Notes: generated from the sequence alone by a model not told the origin. A stretch of 64,000 nucleotides of DNA from Deltaproteobacteria bacterium HGW-Deltaproteobacteria-13 (GCA_002840555.1 PHBJ01000003.1:64412-128411); one strand, 5' to 3'; counted from the stretch's first letter, positions 52,947 through 62,652 are shown. Translations and numbers: made by a program.

Positions 52947-54350
52947 TTAACGTGACGGCGCCTCCAGAATATGAACGCACATCGCCGCCTCTTCCGTGCC
53001 CAGAGCTCCTCCGCCGTTTTCCGCCAGAGCAAACCTTGCGTTTTTAACCTGACGCTTTCCGGCATTGCCTCTCAACTGCGTAACCAGTTCGTGTATCTGA
53101 GCCAGACCTGACGCGCCGATGGGATGGCCTCGCGAAATCAGGCCCCCGCTGGGGTTGATGGGAATGCGGCCGCCGAGGCTTGTCTCTCCTTTTTCGGCAA
53201 AGATGCCGCCTTCACCCTTAGGACAAAAACCGAGATTTTCGGCCTGTACAACTTCACCGAAAGCCGATGCATCATGAACTTCGGCGACATTAATATCCTG
53301 AGGGCCGACACCGGCTTTTTCATAAGCCTGCTTGGAAAGCCTCTCTCCTATTTCCGGAATATCCGAATCGAAAGAAGTTCTGATGGCAGAGCCGAGAACC
53401 GAAGCTTTGATCTTGACGGCCTGACTCGTTAAGCCAAGTTTCTTCACCGTATCTTCCGAACACAAAATAGCGGAAGCGGAACCGTCGCCAATGGGGGCGC
53501 ACATCGACCGCGTCAGCGGCCAGCTGACGATGCGATCGGACAAAACTTTATCCACAGGAACATCGAAGCAGTATTGGGCGTTGGGGTTCAGTGTGGAATT
53601 AAAATGATTTTTAGAAGCGATGATGGCCAGTTGTTCCGCCGTGGAACCGTATTTTTTCATATGCTGGCGGCAGGCATATCCGTAAACATCCATGAAGGGG
53701 GAATGGTCACCGGCTGTCAGTTTGGCCAGTTTCCATACCGTATCGTAGCCGACTTTTTCACCCAGAACAATGGCCGCCGTGAACTGGTCCCGGTATTTTT
53801 TCCATCTTGATTCTTTGGCTTTGGGCTTTTTCGCGCCGCCGCCTTTATGGACGTCCTTCTGATATTTTTGTTTAAATTGTTCCACCTTGATTTTTTCATC
53901 ATCCGTCAGGCCGAATAGAGAAAGGGCATTGGCGATAGGCAGAACGTTTTCGATGTCAATTCCTCCCAGGAATCCCTGAAAGACAAGATTCTTGTTGGAA
54001 TGATAAAGCTTCTCCGCGCCCACGGCCATGGTGATATCGTATAAGCCGCCTGCCACTCCGTACCACGCATGATGCAGTCCCGTGGAACCGCCCGCACAGG
54101 CATTTTCGACATTGGTAATGGGAATGCCTTCTATGCCCATTCCTTTGAGAGCGACCTGGCCGCGAATGGTCATCTGCCCGGCTTCACCCCATCCCGCGTT
54201 GGAAAACCAGAGAGCCTGAATATCGTTCTTGCTCAGACCCGCGTCTGTGAGACAACCTATCGCAGCAGCAATCGCGAGATCCTTGATACTTTTATCGGCG
54301 TGTTTGCCGAATTTGATAGTACTAACCCCTATTATATATACATCCCGCAT
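52947..54350 (-). CDS. Thiolase-fold protein (SCP-x / lipid-transfer-type thiolase)
   Basis: Active-site region NVENACAGGSTGL, C-terminal HDASAFGE ... NPSGGLISRGHPIGASG. Start set at the ATG at 54350 after GAGAGG. Confidence 0.8.
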   Translation of the reverse strand: MRDVYIIGVSTIKFGKHADKSIKDLAIAAAIGCLTDAGLSKNDIQALWFSNAGWGEAGQMTIRGQVALKGMGIEGIPITNVENACAGGSTGLHHAWYGVAGGLYDITMAVGAEKLYHSNKNLVFQGFLGGIDIENVLPIANALSLFGLTDDEKIKVEQFKQKYQKDVHKGGGAKKPKAKESRWKKYRDQFTAAIVLGEKVGYDTVWKLAKLTAGDHSPFMDVYGYACRQHMKKYGSTAEQLAIIASKNHFNSTLNPNAQYCFDVPVDKVLSDRIVSWPLTRSMCAPIGDGSASAILCSEDTVKKLGLTSQAVKIKASVLGSAIRTSFDSDIPEIGERLSKQAYEKAGVGPQDINVAEVHDASAFGEVVQAENLGFCPKGEGGIFAEKGETSLGGRIPINPSGGLISRGHPIGASGLAQIHELVTQLRGNAGKRQVKNARFALAENGGGALGTEEAAMCVHILEAPSR

Positions 54351-54421
54351 ATGGCAACCTCTCAATAGTTGATCAACTTCGTGCTTGATAATGCAAAATA
54401 AATATGGTAAATTAATTTTTG

Positions 54422-54439
54422 TAATTGGTTGACCAATTA
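54422..54439. promoter_or_regulatory. FadR/GntR-type operator candidate
   Basis: TAATTGGT-TG-ACCAATTA perfect 8-bp arms (TGGT-N2-ACCA core) in the divergent region between the thiolase and the GntR gene. Confidence 0.5.
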
Positions 54440-54521
54440 ATAGCAGATATTTACCACATGTCAAGTTTTTTTATGATTTTGGATATACTTTAATACTACA
54501 GAGCTTCAACAAGGATAGAAT

Positions 54522-55289
54522 ATGGAAAGTTTTCAAGCACATGAGCGCGTTATGAATATACTGATCAGGAAGATTTTCAACAGAGAGCTGAAACCCGGCG
54601 ACAAACTACCACCAGAGCGGCAGCTCGCCAAGGACATTCATGTGGACAGGGCGTCTTTGAGAATTGCGCTAAAGAATATGGAAATGATGAATGTGATCAC
54701 CATACGACATGGAGACGGCATCTATGTTCGTGACTACATGAAGGGCGCAAGCATCGATTTCCTGCGGATGCTTTTTCTGCAGACGGAAAAGGCTGATGGT
54801 GAATGGCTTGAAGATTCATATATCATGGATGAGATTTGGGAGTTCTGGGTAATGTTTCTTCCGGAAATGCTTAAATTTGCGGCCCAAAGATTTACACCGC
54901 GCGATATTAAAACCATGATCGATATTTTTGATGAAGAGCTTGCCAATTTGCACGACTGGAATTATTTAATAGAACTGGAACTGAAATCCCAGGAAACAAT
55001 CGCTGAGGTAGGAAAAAATATTGTAGTCATTCTCATGACACATACCTGTCGTCCCTTACGTAAAAAAATGATCGAACTCTTTTATTCTTCAATCGATGAA
55101 GAGAGCATCAAAAAACATATAGAAACAAAAAAAGATTTGATGCGATCATGTATGACTCTAGACACCAGGGAAAGGTTAGCTCTTATCGAACAATATCGCG
55201 AGATGCTCAATAGTCATCGCATAGCCATGCGCAAATTACTTTTTAAAGACGTGGATAAAAAAGTAACTAAACTTAAAAAACAGCGATAA
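54522..55289 (+). CDS. GntR-family (FadR/FCD-type) transcriptional regulator
   Basis: Winged HTH: GDKLPPERQLAKDIHVDRASLRIALKNMEMMNVITIRHGDGIYV. All-helical C-terminal domain. Confidence 0.85.
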   Translation: MESFQAHERVMNILIRKIFNRELKPGDKLPPERQLAKDIHVDRASLRIALKNMEMMNVITIRHGDGIYVRDYMKGASIDFLRMLFLQTEKADGEWLEDSYIMDEIWEFWVMFLPEMLKFAAQRFTPRDIKTMIDIFDEELANLHDWNYLIELELKSQETIAEVGKNIVVILMTHTCRPLRKKMIELFYSSIDEESIKKHIETKKDLMRSCMTLDTRERLALIEQYREMLNSHRIAMRKLLFKDVDKKVTKLKKQR

Positions 55290-55370
55290 GGATAAATAAT
55301 AAGTCGAAGTGCCCTTCTGTGTAAATCCGGCTTCTTCATCACGTCTAATTTTATCCTTTTCTTCCTTAAC

Positions 55371-55399
55371 TCTTAAATCTTAAAACTTAATTACTTAAA
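55371..55399. repeat. Left 29-bp inverted repeat bracketing the AT-rich cassette
   Basis: TCTTAAATCTTAAAACTTAATTACTTAAA. Its reverse complement matches 62927-62955 at 28 of 29 positions. Confidence 0.6.
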
Positions 55400-55471
55400 T
55401 CTTTTTCTTTTCACTTTTCACGGTTATTTACTTAACTATTTAACCCTTAAATCTTAAATCTGTCTTTTTTT

Positions 55472-55508
55472 AACATAGAACGTCGAACTAGAACATAGAA
55501 CTTCGAAC
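55472..55508. repeat. Tandem direct repeat (17 nt x2, 20-nt period)
   Basis: AACATAGAACgTCGAAC / AACATAGAACtTCGAAC. Confidence 0.5.
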
Positions 55509-55613
55509 ATTTCTTTGTCCCCACCTCCCTAGAGGGATACTGTAATTCACTCTTAACCCTTAAATGTCTGTTATAATTTTAAGATATTTATTTTTGAAAA
55601 TAAAAATTACAGC

Positions 55614-55642
55614 TTGACATCGTATCTTACATACTGTAAGAT
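55614..55642 (+). promoter_or_regulatory. Near-consensus sigma70 promoter of the cassette operon
   Basis: TTGACA (55614-55619), 17 nt, TAAGAT (55637-55642), about 50 nt upstream of the first ATG (55691). Confidence 0.55.
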
Positions 55643-55660
55643 AAACTTACAGCGTGTAAA
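55624..55660 (+). promoter_or_regulatory. Two operator-like palindromes overlapping and following the -10 box
   Basis: ATCTTACA-tac-TGTAAGAT (55624-55642, perfect) and CTTACA-gcg-TGTAAA (55646-55660). Both share the TTACA-N3-TGTAA core. Confidence 0.45.
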
Positions 55661-55690
55661 CACTGGGGATTAATACATAGGGGGTAAAAT

Positions 55691-55981
55691 ATGGAATTAG
55701 ATAGAAAGAAAATATTAGATGTGGTGATCAAGGCATTACGAGAGGCGCAATATGAAATAGGAGAAAATAACGAAAATATTGCAGAGAGTACAAAGCCAAT
55801 TGGGGATTTAAAATATTTTGATAGTCTTTCTAGTGTCTATGTAACAGTCCATTGTTTGGATACATTAGGATATAATGAAGAACTTAAAATGCCTAGTCTC
55901 TTTATAGATAAGGAAGGCAATGCCTTAACGGTCGGTAGAGTCGTGGATGAAATATTAAAACTTTTCAGAAAAAATAATTAA
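55691..55981 (+). CDS. Small acidic protein with acyl-carrier-protein-like layout (tentative)
   Basis: 96 aa. GDLKYFDSLSSVYVTVHCLDTLGY resembles the ACP DSL site plus helix II. TVGRVVDEILKLF resembles ACP helix IV. First gene of the operon. Confidence 0.4.
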   Translation: MELDRKKILDVVIKALREAQYEIGENNENIAESTKPIGDLKYFDSLSSVYVTVHCLDTLGYNEELKMPSLFIDKEGNALTVGRVVDEILKLFRKNN

Positions 55982-55990
55982 GGATGTATT

Positions 55991-56344
55991 ATGACAAAAA
56001 ATGATGCAAATAAAAGTCGTGAGCTAATATGTTCAAGATTGAGCATTGCGCGGAAACGCGCGGGATTGTCACAATCGCAAGTTGCGATTATGTTAAATTT
56101 GCCGCGACCTTCAATCTCGGAAATAGAGGCCGGGAGGCGTCGCATTACGGCAGAGGAGTTACTAAAATTTGCGGAACTTTATTCTGTTGATTTAGAATGG
56201 TTAGCAGGCAAAGATGAAAATCAAGTAAATAAAATAAGAGATGAATTATTTTTGGCTGCACGAAACGCTAAAGGACTAAAAGTTGAAGATATTGAAAAAA
56301 TTGTTGATATATTAACGTCGCTGAAAACCAAAGGAGTAAAATAG
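55991..56344 (+). CDS. XRE-family helix-turn-helix regulator
   Basis: LSIARKRAGLSQSQVAIMLNLPRPSISEIEAGRRRITAEELLKFAELYSV: HTH_3 pattern. Confidence 0.85.
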   Translation: MTKNDANKSRELICSRLSIARKRAGLSQSQVAIMLNLPRPSISEIEAGRRRITAEELLKFAELYSVDLEWLAGKDENQVNKIRDELFLAARNAKGLKVEDIEKIVDILTSLKTKGVK

Positions 56345-57225
56345 TGTTAAGCGATAAAAAGCAACTTATATTTAAAGCCACTGCACATGCTGAGTACATT
56401 AGAATAAAATTTGGTATAGATCAACGCGCTCCAATCGATCCGGTCAGTATTGCAGAACAGAGCGGTTGTGAAATTCGATACCTATCACTTCCTTCTTTAG
56501 AAGGTATGTATTCACCCAAACCTCACGCAGTTATATTTATTGGTTCAGAACGACCCGCAGGTCGTCTCGCATTTACTTGTATGCATGAACTTGGACATCA
56601 TGAATTTAAGCATGGCATACGCGTAGACGAAATAAAAAATAGCATATTAAGTGACGCTAATGATCCCAGGGAGTTCGTTGCTGATGTATTTGCTGCAAAT
56701 CTTTTAATGTCAAAAACAAGTATTCTTTATGCCTTGAAAACACGTGGATTAGATCCTCAAAAGCTTGAACCACTGGATGTTTTCCGCTTATCGTCTTTTT
56801 TTGGCGTTGGTTACACTACAATAATTGATCATATGACATCTATGCTTAGAATGTTAAATCAATACCAACAAAACTTATTAAAAAAAATAAAAGCAAAAGA
56901 TTTAAAAGCTCAATTCGGAGGCACACCGCAATCAGAAGTGATAATTGCTGATTCGTTTTGGCAGTCACGGGCTGTTGATATGTCAGTGGGTGATATTCTA
57001 GTGCTGCATAAGGGGGCTGTAGTTGAAGACAGTCGCTATATGATAAAAAAAGATTTGGTTGATGGACAACCTACCTATATTGCGTGTTCAAGAGGCTATA
57101 CGCGAGCTTTTCATGAGAGTGGCGGATGGGCTGTAAATATCCGTATTGCACCGAAACAATATGAGGGATTAGCACAATACAGATTTCTCGATGACCCTGA
57201 GGAGGATTTTGCATGGAAGAAATAA
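56344..57225 (+). CDS. ImmA/IrrE-family zinc metallopeptidase with uncharacterised C-terminal domain
   Basis: HEXXH in FTCMHELGHHEFKH, then E...AN.FAA-type motif (EFVADVFAANLLM). About 150 extra C-terminal residues. GTG start overlaps the XRE stop by 1 nt. Confidence 0.8.
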   Translation: MLSDKKQLIFKATAHAEYIRIKFGIDQRAPIDPVSIAEQSGCEIRYLSLPSLEGMYSPKPHAVIFIGSERPAGRLAFTCMHELGHHEFKHGIRVDEIKNSILSDANDPREFVADVFAANLLMSKTSILYALKTRGLDPQKLEPLDVFRLSSFFGVGYTTIIDHMTSMLRMLNQYQQNLLKKIKAKDLKAQFGGTPQSEVIIADSFWQSRAVDMSVGDILVLHKGAVVEDSRYMIKKDLVDGQPTYIACSRGYTRAFHESGGWAVNIRIAPKQYEGLAQYRFLDDPEEDFAWKK

Positions 57226-57977
57226 AACCTATTTATGGCAAAAATATTTCCGAAGCATGGGCGCTTGCTTACAATGAGTGTTTTAAAATGCCGGGTGGCC
57301 TTATGGCGCCAGCAATTATTTCTTTTGATATTAATGAGGCTGATGCTTCTTGGCAGCTTGAAACAAAAGATATTCGTTATGCTTTGGATAAACAGCTAAT
57401 TAAAGATGATGAGAGCAGTATTGAAACAGTCGCAGGTACAATCTTTCCTGAGTCGGTTTGGATGCGTTGTAACGGTGACCGCGAAAAGTTATTCATGGAA
57501 TATAATAGAATGTGGCCATATGTAAGTAAATGCAGACAAAATAGACATGGTACTTATTTTCGCCGCCTTAGTTCTTTTGGAACAAATCAACTCAAGGCAG
57601 TAATTGAAACATGGCATTCTGGAACTCATCGCCACAGTGCATTGCAATCAGCTATTTTCGATCCTGCTAAAGATCATTCAAAGGCACGGCAACTTGGGTT
57701 TCCATGTCTGCAACAGGTGGTTTTCCACCCAAAAGGTATCAATGGTTCCGAAGGTATGACAGTTGTTGCATTTTATGCAAATCAATTATTGGTCGAGAAA
57801 GCATATGGCAATTACTTAGGATTGTATCGTTTAGGAAAATTCATGGCAGGTGAAATGGGATTACGCCTGAAAGGTGTAACGTGCATCGCCTCTAATCTTT
57901 CTTTAGGTAAGCATGGTAAAAAAGAATGTCAACACCTTTTAAGTGAAATAAAGAGAGTATTATCTGATGCCAACTAA
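57213..57977 (+). CDS. Thymidylate-synthase-fold protein (candidate pyrimidine C5-modifying enzyme)
   Basis: By-eye alignment to the ThyA core. GTYFRRL matches YGxQWR. THRHSALQSAIFDP matches SRRxIxSAWNP. GFPCLQQVVF matches the PPCHxFxQF catalytic Cys. FYANQLLVEKAYGNYLGL matches YQRSxDxxLGxPFNI. 13-nt overlap with the upstream gene. Confidence 0.6.
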   Translation: MEEIKPIYGKNISEAWALAYNECFKMPGGLMAPAIISFDINEADASWQLETKDIRYALDKQLIKDDESSIETVAGTIFPESVWMRCNGDREKLFMEYNRMWPYVSKCRQNRHGTYFRRLSSFGTNQLKAVIETWHSGTHRHSALQSAIFDPAKDHSKARQLGFPCLQQVVFHPKGINGSEGMTVVAFYANQLLVEKAYGNYLGLYRLGKFMAGEMGLRLKGVTCIASNLSLGKHGKKECQHLLSEIKRVLSDAN

Positions 57978-59130
57978 ACAAAAACTTTCTAGGAACTTAT
58001 CGGGGCGTCTGTTTATTTTTGATGGTATGGATAGTGTTGGTAAAAGCACATTTACAAAAGGTGTTTCAAAAAAAAAGCAAAAAAATAATAATACACCACC
58101 ACGGCAACCTGTAAATAAGACTTGTATAGTAAAAATAATAAATCAATCACATTGGCTACCTACAAAAACAACGGCAGTCTTCGACACATACTGGCGCTTC
58201 GCAGCGGAGAGACAAGAGATATTCTTTAAGCGCATTGCAAGAGCAGAGCCACCATGGACTAAAGATGTTGTTCTACAGAGTTACAAATTTACAAATGCAT
58301 ATCGCGCATCAGATAGAGTGAGTCAGTTCTTAATTCGTCATGTTATTTATGATGGATCCCAAGAAATAGATGAAATATTTTTCAGGATTCTCCTCTTCAA
58401 AACTTTCAACAAAATTGAGACATGGCAACATCTTGTCGATAATTTAGGTCAAATATTCTGGCGTGAGTTTAGTTTTAAAGCTTACGATAAGATTTTAACA
58501 AATGCACAAGCAGCAAAGAAGAGCATATATTCAGCCGCCTATATTATGCCGTCAGGTGGCCGACACGGGGTGCATCGCATCAAACATCGCAATCATCTTC
58601 TGCTAATACAAAAAATGATGGCAGATGCTCTACCTGCCCAAATTAGCGATTCTAAATCTATGCAAGTAGTCTTTAATTTACTCCGCAGTTATCCAATGAT
58701 TGGTGATTTTTTGGCATATCAATATGCTATTGACATTAACTATAGCACATTAACAAATTTCAATGAGATGTCTTTTATCGTACCAGGACCCGGTGCAAAA
58801 GATGGTATCCGTAAATGTTTTTCCGATTTCGGTGGTCTCTCTGAAGTCGATATAATAAAACTTATGGCTGATCGCCAAGAGGATGAGTTTGCTCGCTTGG
58901 GTATCAAATTTAAGGACCTTTGGGGCAGATCACTTCAATTAATTGATTGCCAAAATCTTTTCTGTGAAGTTGATAAATATGCCAGAATTGTACATCCAGA
59001 AATTAAAGGTATTACAGGCCGTAGCAAAATTAAACAGACATTAAAACCCAATAACGAGATGATATCTTATTTTTATCCACCAAAATGGAATATTAACGAA
59101 GCTGTGAAAACCACGTTTGATAATAAATGA
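57967..59130 (+). CDS. DNA-base-hypermodification-family protein (aGPT-pyrophosphorylase / 5-hmdU-kinase helical-domain clan, tentative) with N-terminal P-loop stub
   Basis: RLFIFDGMDSVGKST Walker A, then a Lys/Asn-rich linker. Next come YWRFAAERQEIFFKR, YKFTNAYRASDRVSQFLI, MIGDFLAYQYAIDINY, PGPGAKDG and QNLFCEVDKY, motifs I recall from the 'nucleotide kinase domain-containing / DNA base hypermodification' family. 11-nt overlap with the upstream gene. Confidence 0.5.
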   Translation: MPTKQKLSRNLSGRLFIFDGMDSVGKSTFTKGVSKKKQKNNNTPPRQPVNKTCIVKIINQSHWLPTKTTAVFDTYWRFAAERQEIFFKRIARAEPPWTKDVVLQSYKFTNAYRASDRVSQFLIRHVIYDGSQEIDEIFFRILLFKTFNKIETWQHLVDNLGQIFWREFSFKAYDKILTNAQAAKKSIYSAAYIMPSGGRHGVHRIKHRNHLLLIQKMMADALPAQISDSKSMQVVFNLLRSYPMIGDFLAYQYAIDINYSTLTNFNEMSFIVPGPGAKDGIRKCFSDFGGLSEVDIIKLMADRQEDEFARLGIKFKDLWGRSLQLIDCQNLFCEVDKYARIVHPEIKGITGRSKIKQTLKPNNEMISYFYPPKWNINEAVKTTFDNK

Positions 59131-59150
59131 TATTTTAAAGGGAGTTTAAT

Positions 59151-60194
59151 GTGGAATGGCATAGACCACCGTTTAAATTGAAGGAGATCAAAATTGAGGT
59201 TACACACGATTGTATGCTTAGTTGTGTTCATTGTTCGAGCCTTGCAAGTGAAATTACTGGGCGCAGCATGAATTGGTTATCATGTGAAAATATTCTAAAC
59301 GAAGCTAAAGCCATCGGGATTGAGACTATAGCTTTTTCAGGTGGCGAACCACTATTATTGGAATATGTTCCTAAAGCAATAGAACAAGCTTATCAATTTG
59401 GTATTGAAACCCATATTTATACAACAGGTAATGTTCCGCATTTTGAAGAAACCCTACGGCAATTGAATAGGGCTGGATTATCCAAAATAATGTTCAGTCT
59501 TTTTGGAACAAATGCCGAACAGCATGAAAAAGTAACCAAATCCTATGGGAGTTACAATAAAACAATCTCAGCAGCACAATACTGTGTATCTCTCGGTCTA
59601 CAAACGGAATTTCATTTTGTGCCTTTGAATCACAACTTCAGAGCACTTCCAGAAATAGTAAGAAAAGCTCGTAACATGGGTATTGATAAAGTTAGCATCC
59701 TGCGTCTAGTTCCTCAGGGACGTGGTGCAAGCACAAGGCATGAGGAACTCAGCAAAGACCAAAACCTTGAGCTGCGTAAATTAATCAAAGATTTGCGTAG
59801 TGATGGTTATGATATTCGTTTAGGTTCTCCATATAACTTTCTTATGCTTAATGAGAAACCACAATGTTGCGCTGGAATTGATCGTATTACGATAGGACCA
59901 GATTTACGAATATTTCCTTGTGATGCGTTCAAACATATTTCTCCAAGTGATATAGGAGCCTCTGCTGACTATTCTGATTTGGGGAATCATTCTCTTGCTG
60001 AATGCTGGGAAAAGTCACCTTATTTAAATATAGTAAGAAATTACTTGATGTCAGATTTTGCTTCTGAATGTTCTGCCTGCAATAATCTAACAAATTGTCG
60101 ATCAGGTTGTATGGCGCAAAAATTTTATGCTTTCAAAGAGCTTAAAAAAACCACTGATCCAATGTGCCTTCGTATAGATACGCAATGTAACTAA
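59151..60194 (+). CDS. Radical SAM enzyme with SPASM/twitch-type C-terminal Cys-rich domain
   Basis: CMLSCVHC (CxxxCxxC), FSGGEPLL. C-terminal CCAG...FPCD...CSACNNLTNCRSGCMAQ. GTG start after AAGGGAG. Confidence 0.85.
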   Translation: MEWHRPPFKLKEIKIEVTHDCMLSCVHCSSLASEITGRSMNWLSCENILNEAKAIGIETIAFSGGEPLLLEYVPKAIEQAYQFGIETHIYTTGNVPHFEETLRQLNRAGLSKIMFSLFGTNAEQHEKVTKSYGSYNKTISAAQYCVSLGLQTEFHFVPLNHNFRALPEIVRKARNMGIDKVSILRLVPQGRGASTRHEELSKDQNLELRKLIKDLRSDGYDIRLGSPYNFLMLNEKPQCCAGIDRITIGPDLRIFPCDAFKHISPSDIGASADYSDLGNHSLAECWEKSPYLNIVRNYLMSDFASECSACNNLTNCRSGCMAQKFYAFKELKKTTDPMCLRIDTQCN

Positions 60195-60401
60195 GAGATG
60201 AAGTCGTAACTCTTCTTACGTTGTAACTTTTATGGATTCATAAAATATTAAGAGTAGTTCCGGCTGTGAACGCATGTATTGCAGCTTTGTGAGTAGAGTT
60301 TTGGGTAATTAGGGATATATGTACCTATTTATGCCCATTTATACAGAAGCCATCTGCCAGAATGACAAGTGTGAAGATGGAGAAATCATAATATCCTTTT
60401 T

Positions 60402-61631
60402 CTAATCAGCGGAGAACACCTTCGGGTATCGCGTGGCCAATTTTGCCGCAAATTCTCTGATGTAAGGCCATTCAGAATTTTGTAGTTCTTCTAAATAGTC
60501 GGGATAGACTATTGACATTTCTAGAGGTATTTTAGCGACTAATTCTTCTTGTATACATTCAATTGCTAGCGCCATTCGATCACAATCTTTTACTAAAGAA
60601 GCAACACTATTTTTTTCATCGTCGGAAATGTCTTTAAGAAGATGATTCTCATCTATATACTTGGAAAGTTCAGTTGTACTAGTAAGTGCCTTTATTGGTA
60701 GCGCTGCCATTTTGTTTTCTATGTCGTTCCAAAGATTTTTTTCCTCAGGGTATTCTCTTTTAATGATATCTTTAACAGGTGTAATAATATCTCCGGTTAA
60801 TGCCTCAGGGACATCATGGAATAGAGCTCTTTGAAGCGCTCCAATCTTAAAATCAATTGTGAGTTTCTGACTATCTTCATGCATCCATGTAAATAATAAT
60901 GCTAATAAAGTTACAACATATGTATGGGAGAGGACATTGGTTTCTATAGAACGATTAATTCTATTCCATCGTCGAAGGTATTTTAAATTCCTTATTACTT
61001 TAAAATATCCGGGAAGTCTGTCAACCTCTATATCACCTGTCTTGACAGGTTTATTATAGCGATTAAAAGAAATATTAAGCTTATTTACCCAAGAACTATT
61101 TTTACAAAAACCTTTAACGTCTTTTTCTATTTCCTTAATATACCCCGAGTAATATTCGTTATATACAGTTGAGTTTGTCTTACATTCTTGTAAAGCAGTC
61201 TGACGTTGGACATATTTGCACAACTCTTTGATTCTAATTTCATTACTTTCGACAAGATATCTCTTGACTTGTGGTCGTATCATTCTCGGAAATAAGCGTA
61301 GTGTATAAGTCAATGCTCTTTCTTCGACCTTCTTTTCCCATTTTTTTGAATTGCTATTTTTAAGTGATGTGTCTAAGGCACGTTTAAATCGATAGGATAC
61401 ATCCGATAGGAAACGTTTTGTCAATGGTTTTAGTATTTCATAAGCAAGATAATCAAATGCTATCTCTTTTAATTCTTGTTTTTCTTTAATTGTATCGCAG
61501 AGCAAGGCAAAACCGATATGTGCAGAGTATGCAACATTCTCCGCTTCTACCCATGTTTCTACACGTGGCAGAAAATTCCATCTTTGTATCATGAATAAAG
61601 ATGTGATTGCATCAACAAGAGTATCTTTCAT
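60402..61631 (-). CDS. Tandem YfbR-like HD-domain phosphohydrolase (degenerate N-terminal copy, intact C-terminal copy)
   Basis: C-terminal half: RRWNR...ETNVLSHTYVV...ALFHDVPEALTGDIITPVK...DCDRMA, matching the YfbR 5'-deoxynucleotidase pattern. N-terminal half repeats QRWNFLPRVE...ENVAYSAHIG but lacks the HD dyad. Start set at 61631 after GGAGGA (alternative 61643). Confidence 0.7.
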   Translation of the reverse strand: MKDTLVDAITSLFMIQRWNFLPRVETWVEAENVAYSAHIGFALLCDTIKEKQELKEIAFDYLAYEILKPLTKRFLSDVSYRFKRALDTSLKNSNSKKWEKKVEERALTYTLRLFPRMIRPQVKRYLVESNEIRIKELCKYVQRQTALQECKTNSTVYNEYYSGYIKEIEKDVKGFCKNSSWVNKLNISFNRYNKPVKTGDIEVDRLPGYFKVIRNLKYLRRWNRINRSIETNVLSHTYVVTLLALLFTWMHEDSQKLTIDFKIGALQRALFHDVPEALTGDIITPVKDIIKREYPEEKNLWNDIENKMAALPIKALTSTTELSKYIDENHLLKDISDDEKNSVASLVKDCDRMALAIECIQEELVAKIPLEMSIVYPDYLEELQNSEWPYIREFAAKLATRYPKVFSAD

Positions 61632-61692
61632 ATTCTCCTCCATGAAGAAAATAAATCATCAATCAGTGTGGATCGGTATCATTAAAAAGATA

Positions 61693-62652
61693 TTATGTTC
61701 CTAACATGCGGAACAATGGAGAATCATATCTTAAATTGTAGTAAGATTGAGGAGGTCTGAAAGAAGGAATATAGCTATTTCTAATAGAATCTAAAGACCA
61801 TTTCTTTGATAATATTTTAACATTATCAAGTTCAATGGCATAACCATTATTGATCCCGTTAAAATAAGTAAAAAAGTCTTGTTCAGATACTCCCCCGATA
61901 GCACAGAATCGTTTCCATAAATCATTTACATCGGAATGATGTACTTTAGACAATATTGATGAAAAGGTAATGCATTTAACAGGAGAAGAGATATAGAAGT
62001 ATGCAATGGCCCCCTCCATATTCCTTGAAAAACGACGTCGGAATTCAACACGTTTCCCCCCGCTGATGATTAAGTCTGCAAATTGCGGTTTAAGAGAAAA
62101 CAATAGGGCAGAATTCTGCCTGTTATTAGTATCATTTTCGGCGTGTGTCCATGCAAGTGAACGACTAGTTAAATGATAGGGAACCGGGCAAGAATATATA
62201 TGTTCGTCCACACCATGCGAATATCGGTTACGAACATTGGCGATATTATGAAAGCCTAATGATTCAACAAATTTTATGATACTTGGTTCGGCTGCTTCAC
62301 TAATAGTAACCCTAATATCTTTAGTAGATTTATCTATTGTATGGCGTAGACCTTCTGATAATAGCGCTTTTCCTAATCCAATTTTTTTCACATCATCTTT
62401 TAGCCGAAGAGTACATATCTTAGGGTTCGTAGCCCTTTTACCAATAAAAAGGCCTTTAATAATATCTGCGACTTTCAAAACTAAGATCACTCTGTTACCT
62501 TCGAGAACACCCGGCAAGACTTTTTTCTTCCACCAATTATCAATTGCCGGGTATAGATGATCACTCTCTATGAGAAATTCCAGGATAGAAGGATAATCAT
62601 TAAAAACAGCAGGGCTGATAGAAATATCTTTTATAGTCACTTGCTCTTGCAT
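61693..62652 (-). CDS. GNAT acetyltransferase fused to an ASCH (PUA-like) domain
   Basis: N-terminal GNAT motif A region (VKKIGLGKALLSEG...ESLGF). C-terminal ASCH-like LLFSLKPQFADLIISGGKRVEFRRRF...GYAIEL. Confidence 0.6.
   Translation of the reverse strand: MQEQVTIKDISISPAVFNDYPSILEFLIESDHLYPAIDNWWKKKVLPGVLEGNRVILVLKVADIIKGLFIGKRATNPKICTLRLKDDVKKIGLGKALLSEGLRHTIDKSTKDIRVTISEAAEPSIIKFVESLGFHNIANVRNRYSHGVDEHIYSCPVPYHLTSRSLAWTHAENDTNNRQNSALLFSLKPQFADLIISGGKRVEFRRRFSRNMEGAIAYFYISSPVKCITFSSILSKVHHSDVNDLWKRFCAIGGVSEQDFFTYFNGINNGYAIELDNVKILSKKWSLDSIRNSYIPSFRPPQSYYNLRYDSPLFRMLGT

Follow-up and report, generated by a model that had tools for sequence, protein, structure and literature searches.

In a stretch of DNA from the metagenome-assembled genome (MAG) of Deltaproteobacteria bacterium HGW-Deltaproteobacteria-13 (GCA_002840555.1, PHBJ01000003.1:64412-128411; the whole 64,000-nucleotide stretch is called the window here, and positions are counted from its first letter), six plus-strand open reading frames (ORFs) at 55691-60194 form a cassette of ~4.5 kb encoding a carrier-protein-like subunit, an XRE-family repressor, an M78-family peptidase, a divergent thymidylate synthase (TS)-fold enzyme, a protein of the HMUDK_hel family, and a radical S-adenosylmethionine (SAM) enzyme. 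Our favored reading, to which we give about an even chance, is that this is a damage- or infection-inducible anti-phage cassette making a non-canonical pyrimidine nucleotide or DNA base. Bacterial defense built from TS, kinase, and HMUDK_hel parts is a kind of system that is already known: the Escherichia coli unit DS-4 ("NTTI", DefensePredictor, Science 2026) has five genes, encoding a thymidylate synthase, an adenylate kinase, a "DNA base hypermodification protein" (HMUDK_hel), a TIR protein, and Nmad2, and is a validated phage defense (PMC13092281). What is new in the present family is a TS-fold lineage of its own, a carrier protein (with a phosphopantetheinyl transferase (PPTase) in many copies), a built-in XRE/M78 switch, and a radical SAM/SPASM slot. 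The copy in the window is an intact cassette with a secondary loss of its kinase domain.

The six ORFs form one translationally coupled operon. ORF1 and ORF2 are 9 nt apart, the next three junctions are overlaps of 1, 13, and 11 nt, and 20 nt separate ORF5 from ORF6; the features are collected in Table 1. An initial annotation of this DNA had proposed six same-strand ORFs with these overlaps and gaps behind a near-consensus promoter, and every coordinate and junction was borne out, as was the promoter, with the best sigma-70 match of the region in a promoter scan being TTGACA-17-TAAGAT at 55614-55642 (10 of 12 positions). ORF1 is 100% identical to CVU55_03085 of the source MAG.

Table 1. Genes of the cassette and elements of its promoter region, in window coordinates.
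Feature	Position	Strand	Description
ORF1	55691-55981	+	96 amino acids (aa), isoelectric point 5.0, acyl carrier protein (ACP)-like; F43-D44-S45 is the presumed phosphopantetheine site
ORF2	55991-56344	+	117 aa, XRE/Cro-C1 helix-turn-helix (HTH) repressor, CapH/ImmR/DdrO-like
ORF3	56344-57225	+	293 aa, ImmA/IrrE/CapP-type M78 zinc peptidase, HELGHH
ORF4	57213-57977	+	254 aa, divergent TS-fold protein (TS-like), FPCLQQ, C165 the presumed nucleophile
ORF5	57967-59130	+	387 aa, aGPT-Pplase clade 1/HMUDK_hel (residues 69-348) preceded by a 40-aa kinase relic
ORF6	59151-60194	+	347 aa, radical SAM with SPASM-type auxiliary-cluster domain; variable sixth slot
Promoter/operator region	55607-55659	+	-35 TTGACA at 55614-55619; -10 TAAGAT at 55637-55642
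Operator-like site 1	55607		TTACAGCTTGACA, imperfect, over the -35
Operator-like site 2	55627		TTACATACTGTAA, perfect TTACA-N3-TGTAA, over the -10
Operator-like site 3	55647		TTACAGCGTGTAA, perfect TTACA-N3-TGTAA, just downstream of the -10

The cassette belongs to a large, modular family known from at least 250 species. Its TS-like protein has 472 close homologs in a 5.8-billion-protein collection and 1,124 clusters at 50% identity in a 1.84-billion representative library, and the gene is found in 250 species-representative genomes. We surveyed about 80 loci (given L numbers here) from species-representative genomes bearing the TS-like gene together with five contigs reached through close protein homologs (phmmer); some of these loci are related to each other. 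A five-gene core of carrier, XRE, M78, TS-like, and HMUDK_hel genes spans more than 10 phyla, and the order carrier-XRE-M78-TS-like-HMUDK_hel recurs in Desulfobacterota, Victivallales, Planctomycetota, Verrucomicrobiota, Burkholderiales (including Paraburkholderia xenovorans LB400, with the MazG-type locus L026 at about 2.0975-2.1018 Mb of NC_007951.1), Cyanobacteria, Acidobacteriota, Chloroflexota, Rubrobacter, and Balneolales. The genes flanking the cassette differ from locus to locus, and the order is not due to chance, as the same order is found in dozens of unrelated genomes. The TS-like gene is also carried by 19 plasmids, 12 of them conjugative. Judged by its distribution, the cassette appears to be a horizontally mobile and widely distributed unit.

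The sixth slot varies among the loci. A radical SAM/SPASM gene occupies it in 15 loci in addition to the window, a Pfam-recognizable thymidylate synthase in 15 (always accompanied by the kinase domain, and in one case by a radical SAM gene as well), and MazG+MazG_C in 41, where the HMUDK_hel protein is mostly kinase-less. The radical SAM enzyme, which the initial annotation had counted among the parts of the unit, is therefore outside the conserved core and is one occupant of a variable slot that holds a canonical TS or MazG+MazG_C elsewhere. Minimal variants have no HMUDK_hel at all (L024, L089, and L092). In L024 (7935-9620), the TS-like, MazG, and MazG_C parts form one 561-aa protein that is followed by an IS transposase. 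L089 (6345-9573; IMG/VR UViG_3300017540_000228) has carrier, XRE, M78, TS-like, and MazG-MazG_C genes flanked by a terminase gene of the gpA type on one side and portal and capsid genes of the lambda type on the other, which is where prophage morons are typically found. L092, on a plasmid of Rhizobium leguminosarum WSM1689 (464745-470058), encodes a small protein with an IDSL motif, an HTH protein, an ImmA/IrrE protein, a papain-like C1 peptidase, and a distant TS-like protein, and has a convergent uracil-DNA glycosylase (UDG)-superfamily gene and a dCTP-deaminase-like gene as neighbors. These minimal variants reduce the invariant part to a quartet of carrier, XRE, M78, and TS-like enzyme. The variable partners, namely Thymidylate_kin, MazG, canonical TS, dCTP-deaminase-like, and UDG proteins, are by their family assignments all pyrimidine-nucleotide enzymes. 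Split genes were seen in two loci, with the M78 gene of L006 (7140-8004) divided into two ORFs and both the HMUDK_hel and radical SAM genes of L016 (8767-11510, a Geotalea toluenoxydans draft) divided; these are either decaying copies or assembly errors.

The TS fold of ORF4, which had been proposed from an alignment by eye with ThyA that included the catalytic Pro-Cys motif, is supported by structure prediction. The AlphaFold2 (AF2) model (mean confidence, pLDDT, 91) matches MilA, ThyA, gp42, and AfhB with a Foldseek probability of 1.0 and template modeling (TM) scores of 0.5-0.67. The best solved-structure match is the CMP hydroxymethylase MilA (E = 4e-7), and the best structural matches as a group are compact C5-modifying enzymes, i.e., MilA, the phage dCMP hydroxylase AfhB, and the T4-type gp42 (TM 0.56-0.67). 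The FPCLQQ motif is invariant, its P164-C165 is so in 41 sequences, and an hhalign alignment (probability 33%) pairs ThyA E58/W61/Q111/R126/P145-C146 with ORF4 E80/W83/Q126/R140/P164-C165. ORF4 has no Pfam match, PF00303 included, and no PDB sequence match; its weak sequence matches are to TIGR03283 (E = 2e-6, at 27.5 bits below the cut-off of 174.55) and phrog_5131 (E = 1e-7). We rejected the identification of ORF4 as a canonical thymidylate synthase, as it matches none of PF00303, the PDB sequences, and the TS of DS-4; only the fold is shared.

ORF5 matches PF18723 (HMUDK_hel) over the full length of the model at E = 1e-112 (376.5 bits against a cut-off of 25). All three motifs quoted in the initial annotation were found, most of their residues being invariant or nearly so across the family. 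PF18723 is also matched, at E = 4e-83, by a Salmonella phage protein that carries the annotation "aGPT-Pplase clade 1" (alpha-glutamyl/putrescinyl-thymine pyrophosphorylase), meaning that the assignment of ORF5 to the aGPT-Pplase/HMUDK family made there was right. A helix-hairpin-helix (HhH) DNA-glycosylase-like fold has been predicted in the literature for aGPT-Pplases, and the best PDB matches of the AF2 model of ORF5 (pLDDT 88) are HhH glycosylases, namely 2h56 (probability 0.77, E = 0.16), Ogg enzymes, and QNG1, none of them a significant match. The best phage HMUDK_hel homolog (35% identity) is in the Brevibacterium phage LuckyBarnes (gp38-gp41, L086), where it adjoins a 517-aa protein with a thymidylate synthase domain and two glycosyltransferases in an uncharacterized phage DNA-modification cluster.

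The nearest relatives of ORF5 are 558-587 aa long and carry a complete Thymidylate_kin domain (PF02223) ahead of HMUDK_hel. Residues 1-40 of ORF5 correspond to residues 1-40 of the protein of L001, a Desulfobacterota locus of the radical SAM type, and residues 47-387 to 228-568, with ~183 aa deleted in frame, and the Walker A sequence GMDSVGKST lies within the remaining 40 aa of the dTMP-kinase-like domain. The same deletion is present in one other genome (P0143, 89% identical), in which Walker A has degenerated to GMNNVVKNT; the remainder of the protein shows 89-91% identity between the two carriers, with its frame undisrupted. The Walker A stub noted in the initial annotation is thus real as a relic of a dTMP-kinase-like domain, but not as a design feature; it is the leftover of a lineage-specific deletion. 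Independently of it, L009, L018, L035, and L042 also pair a kinase-less HMUDK_hel protein with a radical SAM enzyme, and the family as a whole has many short forms. The public annotation of the MAG gives ORF5 as 330 aa (P0144), with a start after the Walker A relic (57967-58140 region). The longer ORF5 is more likely, because a start at the ATG of 57967 gives precisely the 11-nt overlap with the ORF4 stop that L001 has.

The carrier-protein identity of ORF1, proposed at the outset from a DSL segment, is probably real. The F-D-S motif is invariant in the ORF1 family (35 sequences from several phyla), and all 54 matches at E <=10 of the family profile against the PDB are ACPs, the best being AcpM (E = 0.003), with the serine of the DSL motif paired in the alignments shown. 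ORF1 of the window matches no Pfam model, PF00550 (PP-binding) included; PF00550 is matched by 7 of the 35 relatives (searched at E <=1), with a best E of 2e-6. In 74 of 80 loci, the gene ahead of the XRE gene is carrier-like. A gene for an AcpS-family PPTase (PF01648, E = 1e-15) stands beside 18 of the ~80 related cassettes, all MazG-type, from cyanobacteria (Nostoc and Pseudanabaena among them), alphaproteobacteria, and Acidobacteriota, and in 16 of these 18 it abuts the 3' end of the cassette, convergent and 10-51 nt away or overlapping by a few bases. DUF1643 genes occur as well in nine cyanobacterial loci, directly beside the PPTase gene where both occur (the loci with AcpS or DUF1643 neighbors are L052-L054, L062-L067, L070, L073, L075, L077, and L079-L084). 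This dedicated AcpS supports the ORF1 family being a true carrier protein, because without pantetheinylation of the small protein there would be little reason for a second holo-ACP synthase at this place. A putatively phosphopantetheinylated carrier protein appears to be an obligatory partner in this cassette family. The 64-kb window contains no PPTase gene, and no adenylating or acyl-loading enzyme was present with any of the loci surveyed. Two other interpretations of this gene were rejected: ORF1 is not a precursor or chaperone of a peptide made on the ribosome and modified after translation (RiPP) for a radical SAM maturase, as it is ACP-like and kept in variants without radical SAM, and the apparent ACP-XRE fusions of L059, L060, L080, and L083 have long N-termini that are Arg-rich ORF-calling artefacts in high-GC DNA.

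The two regulators read as initially annotated. ORF2 is an XRE regulator matching PF01381 (HTH_3, E = 4e-14), the PADLOC model capH (E = 1.4e-10), and the ICEBs1 Xre regulator 7t8i in the PDB (E = 2.6e-5). ORF3 is an ImmA/IrrE-type HEXXH peptidase matching PF06114 (Peptidase_M78, E = 5e-14) and capP (PADLOC, E = 5.8e-17), with H81-E82-x-x-H85 invariant in the family. The ORF3-family profile matches the peptidase domain only of IrrE (8slm, E = 6e-9) and CapP (7t5t, E = 1.3e-6); at 293 aa, ORF3 is in line with the 291-301 aa of CapP and IrrE, and a profile search gave no sequence match of its C-terminal ~150 aa to the HTH+GAF part of these proteins. The three operator-like sites over the promoter are spaced at exactly 20 bp, and the two perfect TTACA-N3-TGTAA palindromes in the entire 64-kb window are both found here. 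A shorter form, TACA-N3-TGTA, recurs upstream of the first gene, at a distance of 45-54 nt, in eight related loci (L003, L004, L006, L009, L012, L016, L017, and L018). Palindromes placed over a promoter in this way read as the signature of an operator-controlled, autoregulated promoter. The leader between the upstream gene and ORF1 (400 nt, 55290-55690) is AT-rich, with a 17-nt direct repeat, AACATAGAAC[G/T]TCGAAC, at 55472 and 55492 and an imperfect 40-nt repeat at 55372 and 55431; these repeats could be regulator sites or an insertion scar.

ORF6 is, as the initial annotation had it, a CxxxCxxC radical SAM enzyme with a SPASM-type tail. It matches PF04055 at E = 3.5e-18 (66.8 bits against a cut-off of 29.5) with its CX3CX2C motif at C21/C25/C28, and these cysteines and eight C-terminal ones (C239/257/285/307/310/316/320/339) are kept in 14-15 of 15 relatives. 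The C-terminal motif is C239, C257, C307-x2-C310-x5-C316-x3-C320, and C339, thereby including CX2CX5CX3C, and scores 13.6 bits against the Pfam SPASM model, below the cut-off of 21.5. ORF6 aligns over its full length to PqqE (TIGR02109, E = 1e-29; PDB 6c8v, E = 2e-14), and its second-best solved relative is the nucleoside decarboxylase BlsE (7vob, E = 1e-10). No precursor peptide gene or PqqD-like gene is present with ORF6. PADLOC models of pVip match at E = 1e-14 over the generic radical SAM core only, and we rejected ORF6 as a viperin because of its SPASM domain and its full-length similarity to PqqE.

The initial annotation had placed this set of genes in a cellular rather than a phage context, and database searches agree: no TS-like homolog was found in 50,697 phage genomes, only 3, L089 being one, were found among 2.9 million IMG/VR contigs, and positions 44-64 kb of the window have no phage DNA similarity. 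The neighborhoods of the cassettes include defense genes. Among the 109 nearest flanking ORFs, PADLOC recognized three Argonautes (E down to 1e-216), two GajA, PDC-S05, and PDC-S23, counts that stand without a formal background and come from loci of which some are related. Pfam searches added, as further neighbors, a SIR2 protein of 1,062 aa and the R subunit of a type I restriction system.

Taken as a pathway, the cassette would, in the favored reading, work as follows. The XRE repressor, bound to the TTACA-N3-TGTAA sites, would keep the operon low until phage infection or DNA damage leads the IrrE/CapP-like peptidase to cleave it, with single-stranded DNA (ssDNA) as the possible trigger by analogy to CapP, which published work describes as an ssDNA-activated peptidase cleaving CapH. 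The TS-fold enzyme would then activate C5 of a pyrimidine (deoxy)nucleotide through Cys165 and add a substituent, a step suggested by the hydroxymethylases and hydroxylases that are the nearest structural relatives of ORF4. The dTMP-kinase-like domain of the full-length relatives (in other variants, MazG_C) would return the product to the di- and triphosphate pool and from there to replicating DNA; kinase or MazG modules, where a cassette has them, would shuttle substrate and product between monophosphates and triphosphates, as happens in phage pathways (PMC13458397). The HMUDK_hel domain and the radical SAM enzyme would further process the modified nucleotide, or the base within DNA, and the resulting non-canonical nucleotide or base would block phage DNA replication or expression. 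A further idea, to which we attach only a slim chance, concerns the carrier. The putative holo-carrier may take part chemically in the TS-fold reaction as a co-substrate, its thiol or carried group replacing methylene-tetrahydrofolate at the pyrimidine C5 or trapping the exocyclic-methylene intermediate; the product would be a protein-tethered or pantetheine-derived pyrimidine adduct and, in the most extreme case, replicating phage DNA crosslinked to protein. If true, this would be carrier-protein-dependent nucleic-acid chemistry acting as immunity, with no described precedent.

Several points weigh against the anti-phage reading, beginning with the missing background for the neighbor counts given above. 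No phenotype or product has been described for any member of the family, nor a mechanism for DS-4. The ThyA segment R166-S167-x-D169 is not recognizably kept in ORF4 (the hhalign alignment ends after the Cys, and the rest was compared by eye), leaving a free nucleotide as the substrate of ORF4 unproven; the segment after the Cys reads Y-A-N-Q-L-L...G-N-Y, with N200 possibly equivalent to ThyA N177 and with Arg, Ser, and Asp not conserved. A BLAST comparison of ORF4 with the TS of DS-4 gave no similarity, and PF00303 is matched by the latter only. The predicted HMUDK_hel fold has no significant Foldseek match (TM <=0.37), and to our knowledge the biochemical role of aGPT-Pplase clade 1/HMUDK_hel is uncharacterized even in phages. 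The window copy has no kinase domain and no visible substitute. We know of no nucleotide-modification pathway that has a place for a carrier protein. ORF2 and ORF3 are co-directional with the operon and lie within it, and CapH/CapP are typically divergent from the operons that they control. Finally, PADLOC recognizes only the regulators and a generic radical SAM similarity in the cassette.

The readings that compete with an anti-phage nucleotide or base differ in what the chemistry is for. One that we consider unlikely is a defense that senses and attacks phages with 5-hydroxymethyl-pyrimidine DNA: HMUDK_hel, with or without the kinase, would recognize 5-hydroxymethyl-uracil or -cytosine in the incoming DNA and derivatize it, the TS-fold protein would bind the hydroxymethylated deoxynucleoside monophosphates of the phage, and the radical SAM enzyme or carrier would turn the marked base into a lesion or DNA-protein crosslink. 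HMUDK_hel/aGPT-Pplase homologs do occur in phages that build on 5-hydroxymethyl-deoxyuridine (5-hmdU), the characterized phage hypermodification pathway acts on DNA after replication (PMC8989533), the predicted HMUDK_hel fold is faintly HhH-glycosylase-like, kinase-less versions exist, and the defense context is the same as for our favored reading. However, the kinase domain of the relatives falls in the PF02223 dTMP-kinase family, outside the P-loop kinases for which phosphorylation of 5-hmdU in DNA has been demonstrated, the MazG, canonical TS, and dCTP-deaminase-like partners point to pool chemistry, and a conserved catalytic Cys in the TS-fold protein argues for an enzyme over a sensor. 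A second competing reading is microbial competition, through a nucleoside or nucleotide antimetabolite pathway of the mildiomycin, bacimethrin, or blasticidin type that uses a carrier protein. This had been put forward in the initial annotation, and the likeness of ORF4 to MilA, its best solved-structure match, and of ORF6 to BlsE, its second-best solved relative, still speaks for it, as do a carrier protein and a dedicated PPTase, which are typical of secondary metabolism. It is nevertheless weaker than the defense reading, and we regard it as quite improbable: no gene for loading, condensation, export, or self-resistance ever accompanies the cassette, its size is just 4.5 kb, unrelated enzymes replace one another in the "tailoring" slot while the regulators stay fixed, the cassettes are found in defense-type neighborhoods, on conjugative plasmids, and as a prophage moron, and the nearest tested relative is a phage-defense system, DS-4.

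We give still less credence to a host DNA hypermodification (epigenetic) module with which the cell would mark its own DNA, for instance to shield it from nucleases or to provide the modification half of a restriction-like system. The enzyme families are indeed those of phage DNA hypermodification, and UDG-superfamily genes adjoin some variants, but no cognate nuclease is conserved with the core, genome-wide replacement of T or C would need pool control and polymerase tolerance, and the repressor/peptidase switch implies expression that is normally off, unlike maintenance modification. A caveat compatible with any of these readings is that the window copy is a decaying relic, its pathway inactivated by the loss of the kinase. 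The deletion itself, the degenerate Walker A of the other deletion carrier, and the split genes of L006 (M78) and L016 (HMUDK_hel and radical SAM) could be taken in this way. We doubt it, as the six ORFs are intact with overlaps exactly as in L001, the remainder of ORF5 is well kept between the two deletion carriers, and kinase-less HMUDK_hel proteins with radical SAM enzymes occur independently in four other loci. The inducible anti-phage or base-modification reading of the initial annotation, which we continue to favor, is strengthened, short of proof. In its favor are the conserved mobile unit, the switch with its operators, the nucleotide chemistry suggested by ORF4 and its partner genes, the defense-type neighbors, and DS-4, which protects E. 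coli from phages.

The cassette lies in a low-GC island of the window (54000-62000, GC 0.34-0.39 versus 0.45-0.53 elsewhere in the window) that also contains a GntR gene (54522-55289) and two minus-strand genes. One of these (60402-61643, 413 aa) is convergent on the cassette and encodes in its C-terminal half a YfbR-like HD 5'-deoxynucleotidase (PF12917, E = 4.6e-27), with a match to a phrog "dATP triphosphohydrolase" (E = 9e-12) and with its N-terminal 200 aa lacking an assignment. The other (61693-62652, 319 aa) encodes a GNAT acetyltransferase fused to an ASCH-like C-terminal domain and matches the PADLOC candidate defense families PDC-M11B (E = 6e-29) and PDC-M11A, a match suggesting that the island holds more than one defense-type gene. 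Neither was accepted as part of the system, as homologs are absent beside the other ~80 cassettes. There are no tRNA genes anywhere in the 64-kb window, and the ORFs read at 51.3-64 kb showed no integrase. We rejected the idea that the cassette is the immunity region of a prophage or of an integrative and conjugative element in this window, given the lack of tRNA genes and phage DNA similarity and the metabolic genes that flank the island.

If the favored reading is true, bacteria would have turned the phages' own DNA-hypermodification kit, under a damage or infection switch, against phages or other invaders. An obligatory carrier, with a dedicated AcpS in many copies, would be an unexpected component for nucleotide or DNA chemistry. 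Knowing what the product is could uncover a new antiviral nucleotide or DNA lesion, give aGPT-Pplase clade 1/HMUDK_hel a function, and yield new enzymes for site-specific DNA derivatization. Culturable carriers such as P. xenovorans LB400, Nostoc, Geobacter, and Rubrobacter make the family directly testable. We found no description of the present family in the searchable literature, a scope outside which older comparative-genomics papers fall, and nothing relevant in the literature tying PF18723, Nmad2, DUF1643, or a PPTase to anti-phage function. The statement in the initial annotation that this combination matches no described system therefore needs dividing: the parts list has a precedent in DS-4, and the exact combination is not described in the searchable literature.

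Among known systems, the switch resembles CapH/CapP, ImmR/ImmA, and DdrO/IrrE in having an XRE repressor beside an M78 peptidase of ~290 aa and palindromes at the promoter, and differs from them in that the regulators here are inside their own operon, translationally coupled, and preceded by a carrier gene. MilA, T4 gp42, and AfhB are, like ORF4, compact TS-fold proteins and are its nearest structural neighbors, with only 12-13% identity to it and no significant sequence match. With pVip (with or without a kinase), the cassette possibly shares the logic of a radical SAM enzyme and a nucleotide kinase making an antiviral nucleotide; unlike pVip, ORF6 aligns full-length to SPASM enzymes and has two auxiliary-cluster cysteine sets.

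A closer parallel in parts is found in phage thymidine hypermodification, in which a dUMP hydroxymethylase, a 5-hmdU DNA kinase (5-HMUDK), an aGPT-Pplase, and tailoring enzymes including a radical SAM isomerase take part (PMC5889632, PMC8989533). Both have a TS-fold C5-modifying enzyme, a kinase, an aGPT-Pplase-family protein, and a radical SAM enzyme, and HMUDK_hel homologs sit in phage DNA-modification clusters. In contrast to the phage pathway, which belongs to lytic phages, the present cassette is found in a cellular or mobile-element context, and the kinase, aGPT-Pplase, and radical SAM parts differ in type: the kinase of the relatives is dTMP-kinase-like (PF02223) instead of a P-loop 5-HMUDK, ORF5 is of clade 1 (PF18723) whereas the characterized phage transferase is of clade 2, and ORF6 is SPASM/PqqE-like whereas the phage radical SAM enzyme is spore-photoproduct-lyase-like. 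The regulators and the carrier protein are additions of the present cassette.

DS-4 differs from the cassette in several respects. Its validated five-gene unit lists no carrier, XRE, M78, or radical SAM gene, its kinase is a separate adenylate-kinase-like gene, and its TS is Pfam-recognizable (PF00303) without detectable sequence similarity to ORF4. HMUDK_hel is the one component common to the two by sequence, with 28% identity between ORF5 and the HMUDK_hel protein of DS-4 (E = 7e-30), and the TIR and Nmad2 genes are absent from the window. The likeness lies in bringing a TS-fold enzyme, a nucleotide kinase, and an HMUDK_hel protein together in one operon. Homologs of the DS-4 TIR and Nmad2 genes are found directly beside the cassettes of L010, L017, L022, and L053, in varying orientations, and their presence there points to a link between DS-4 and the present family.

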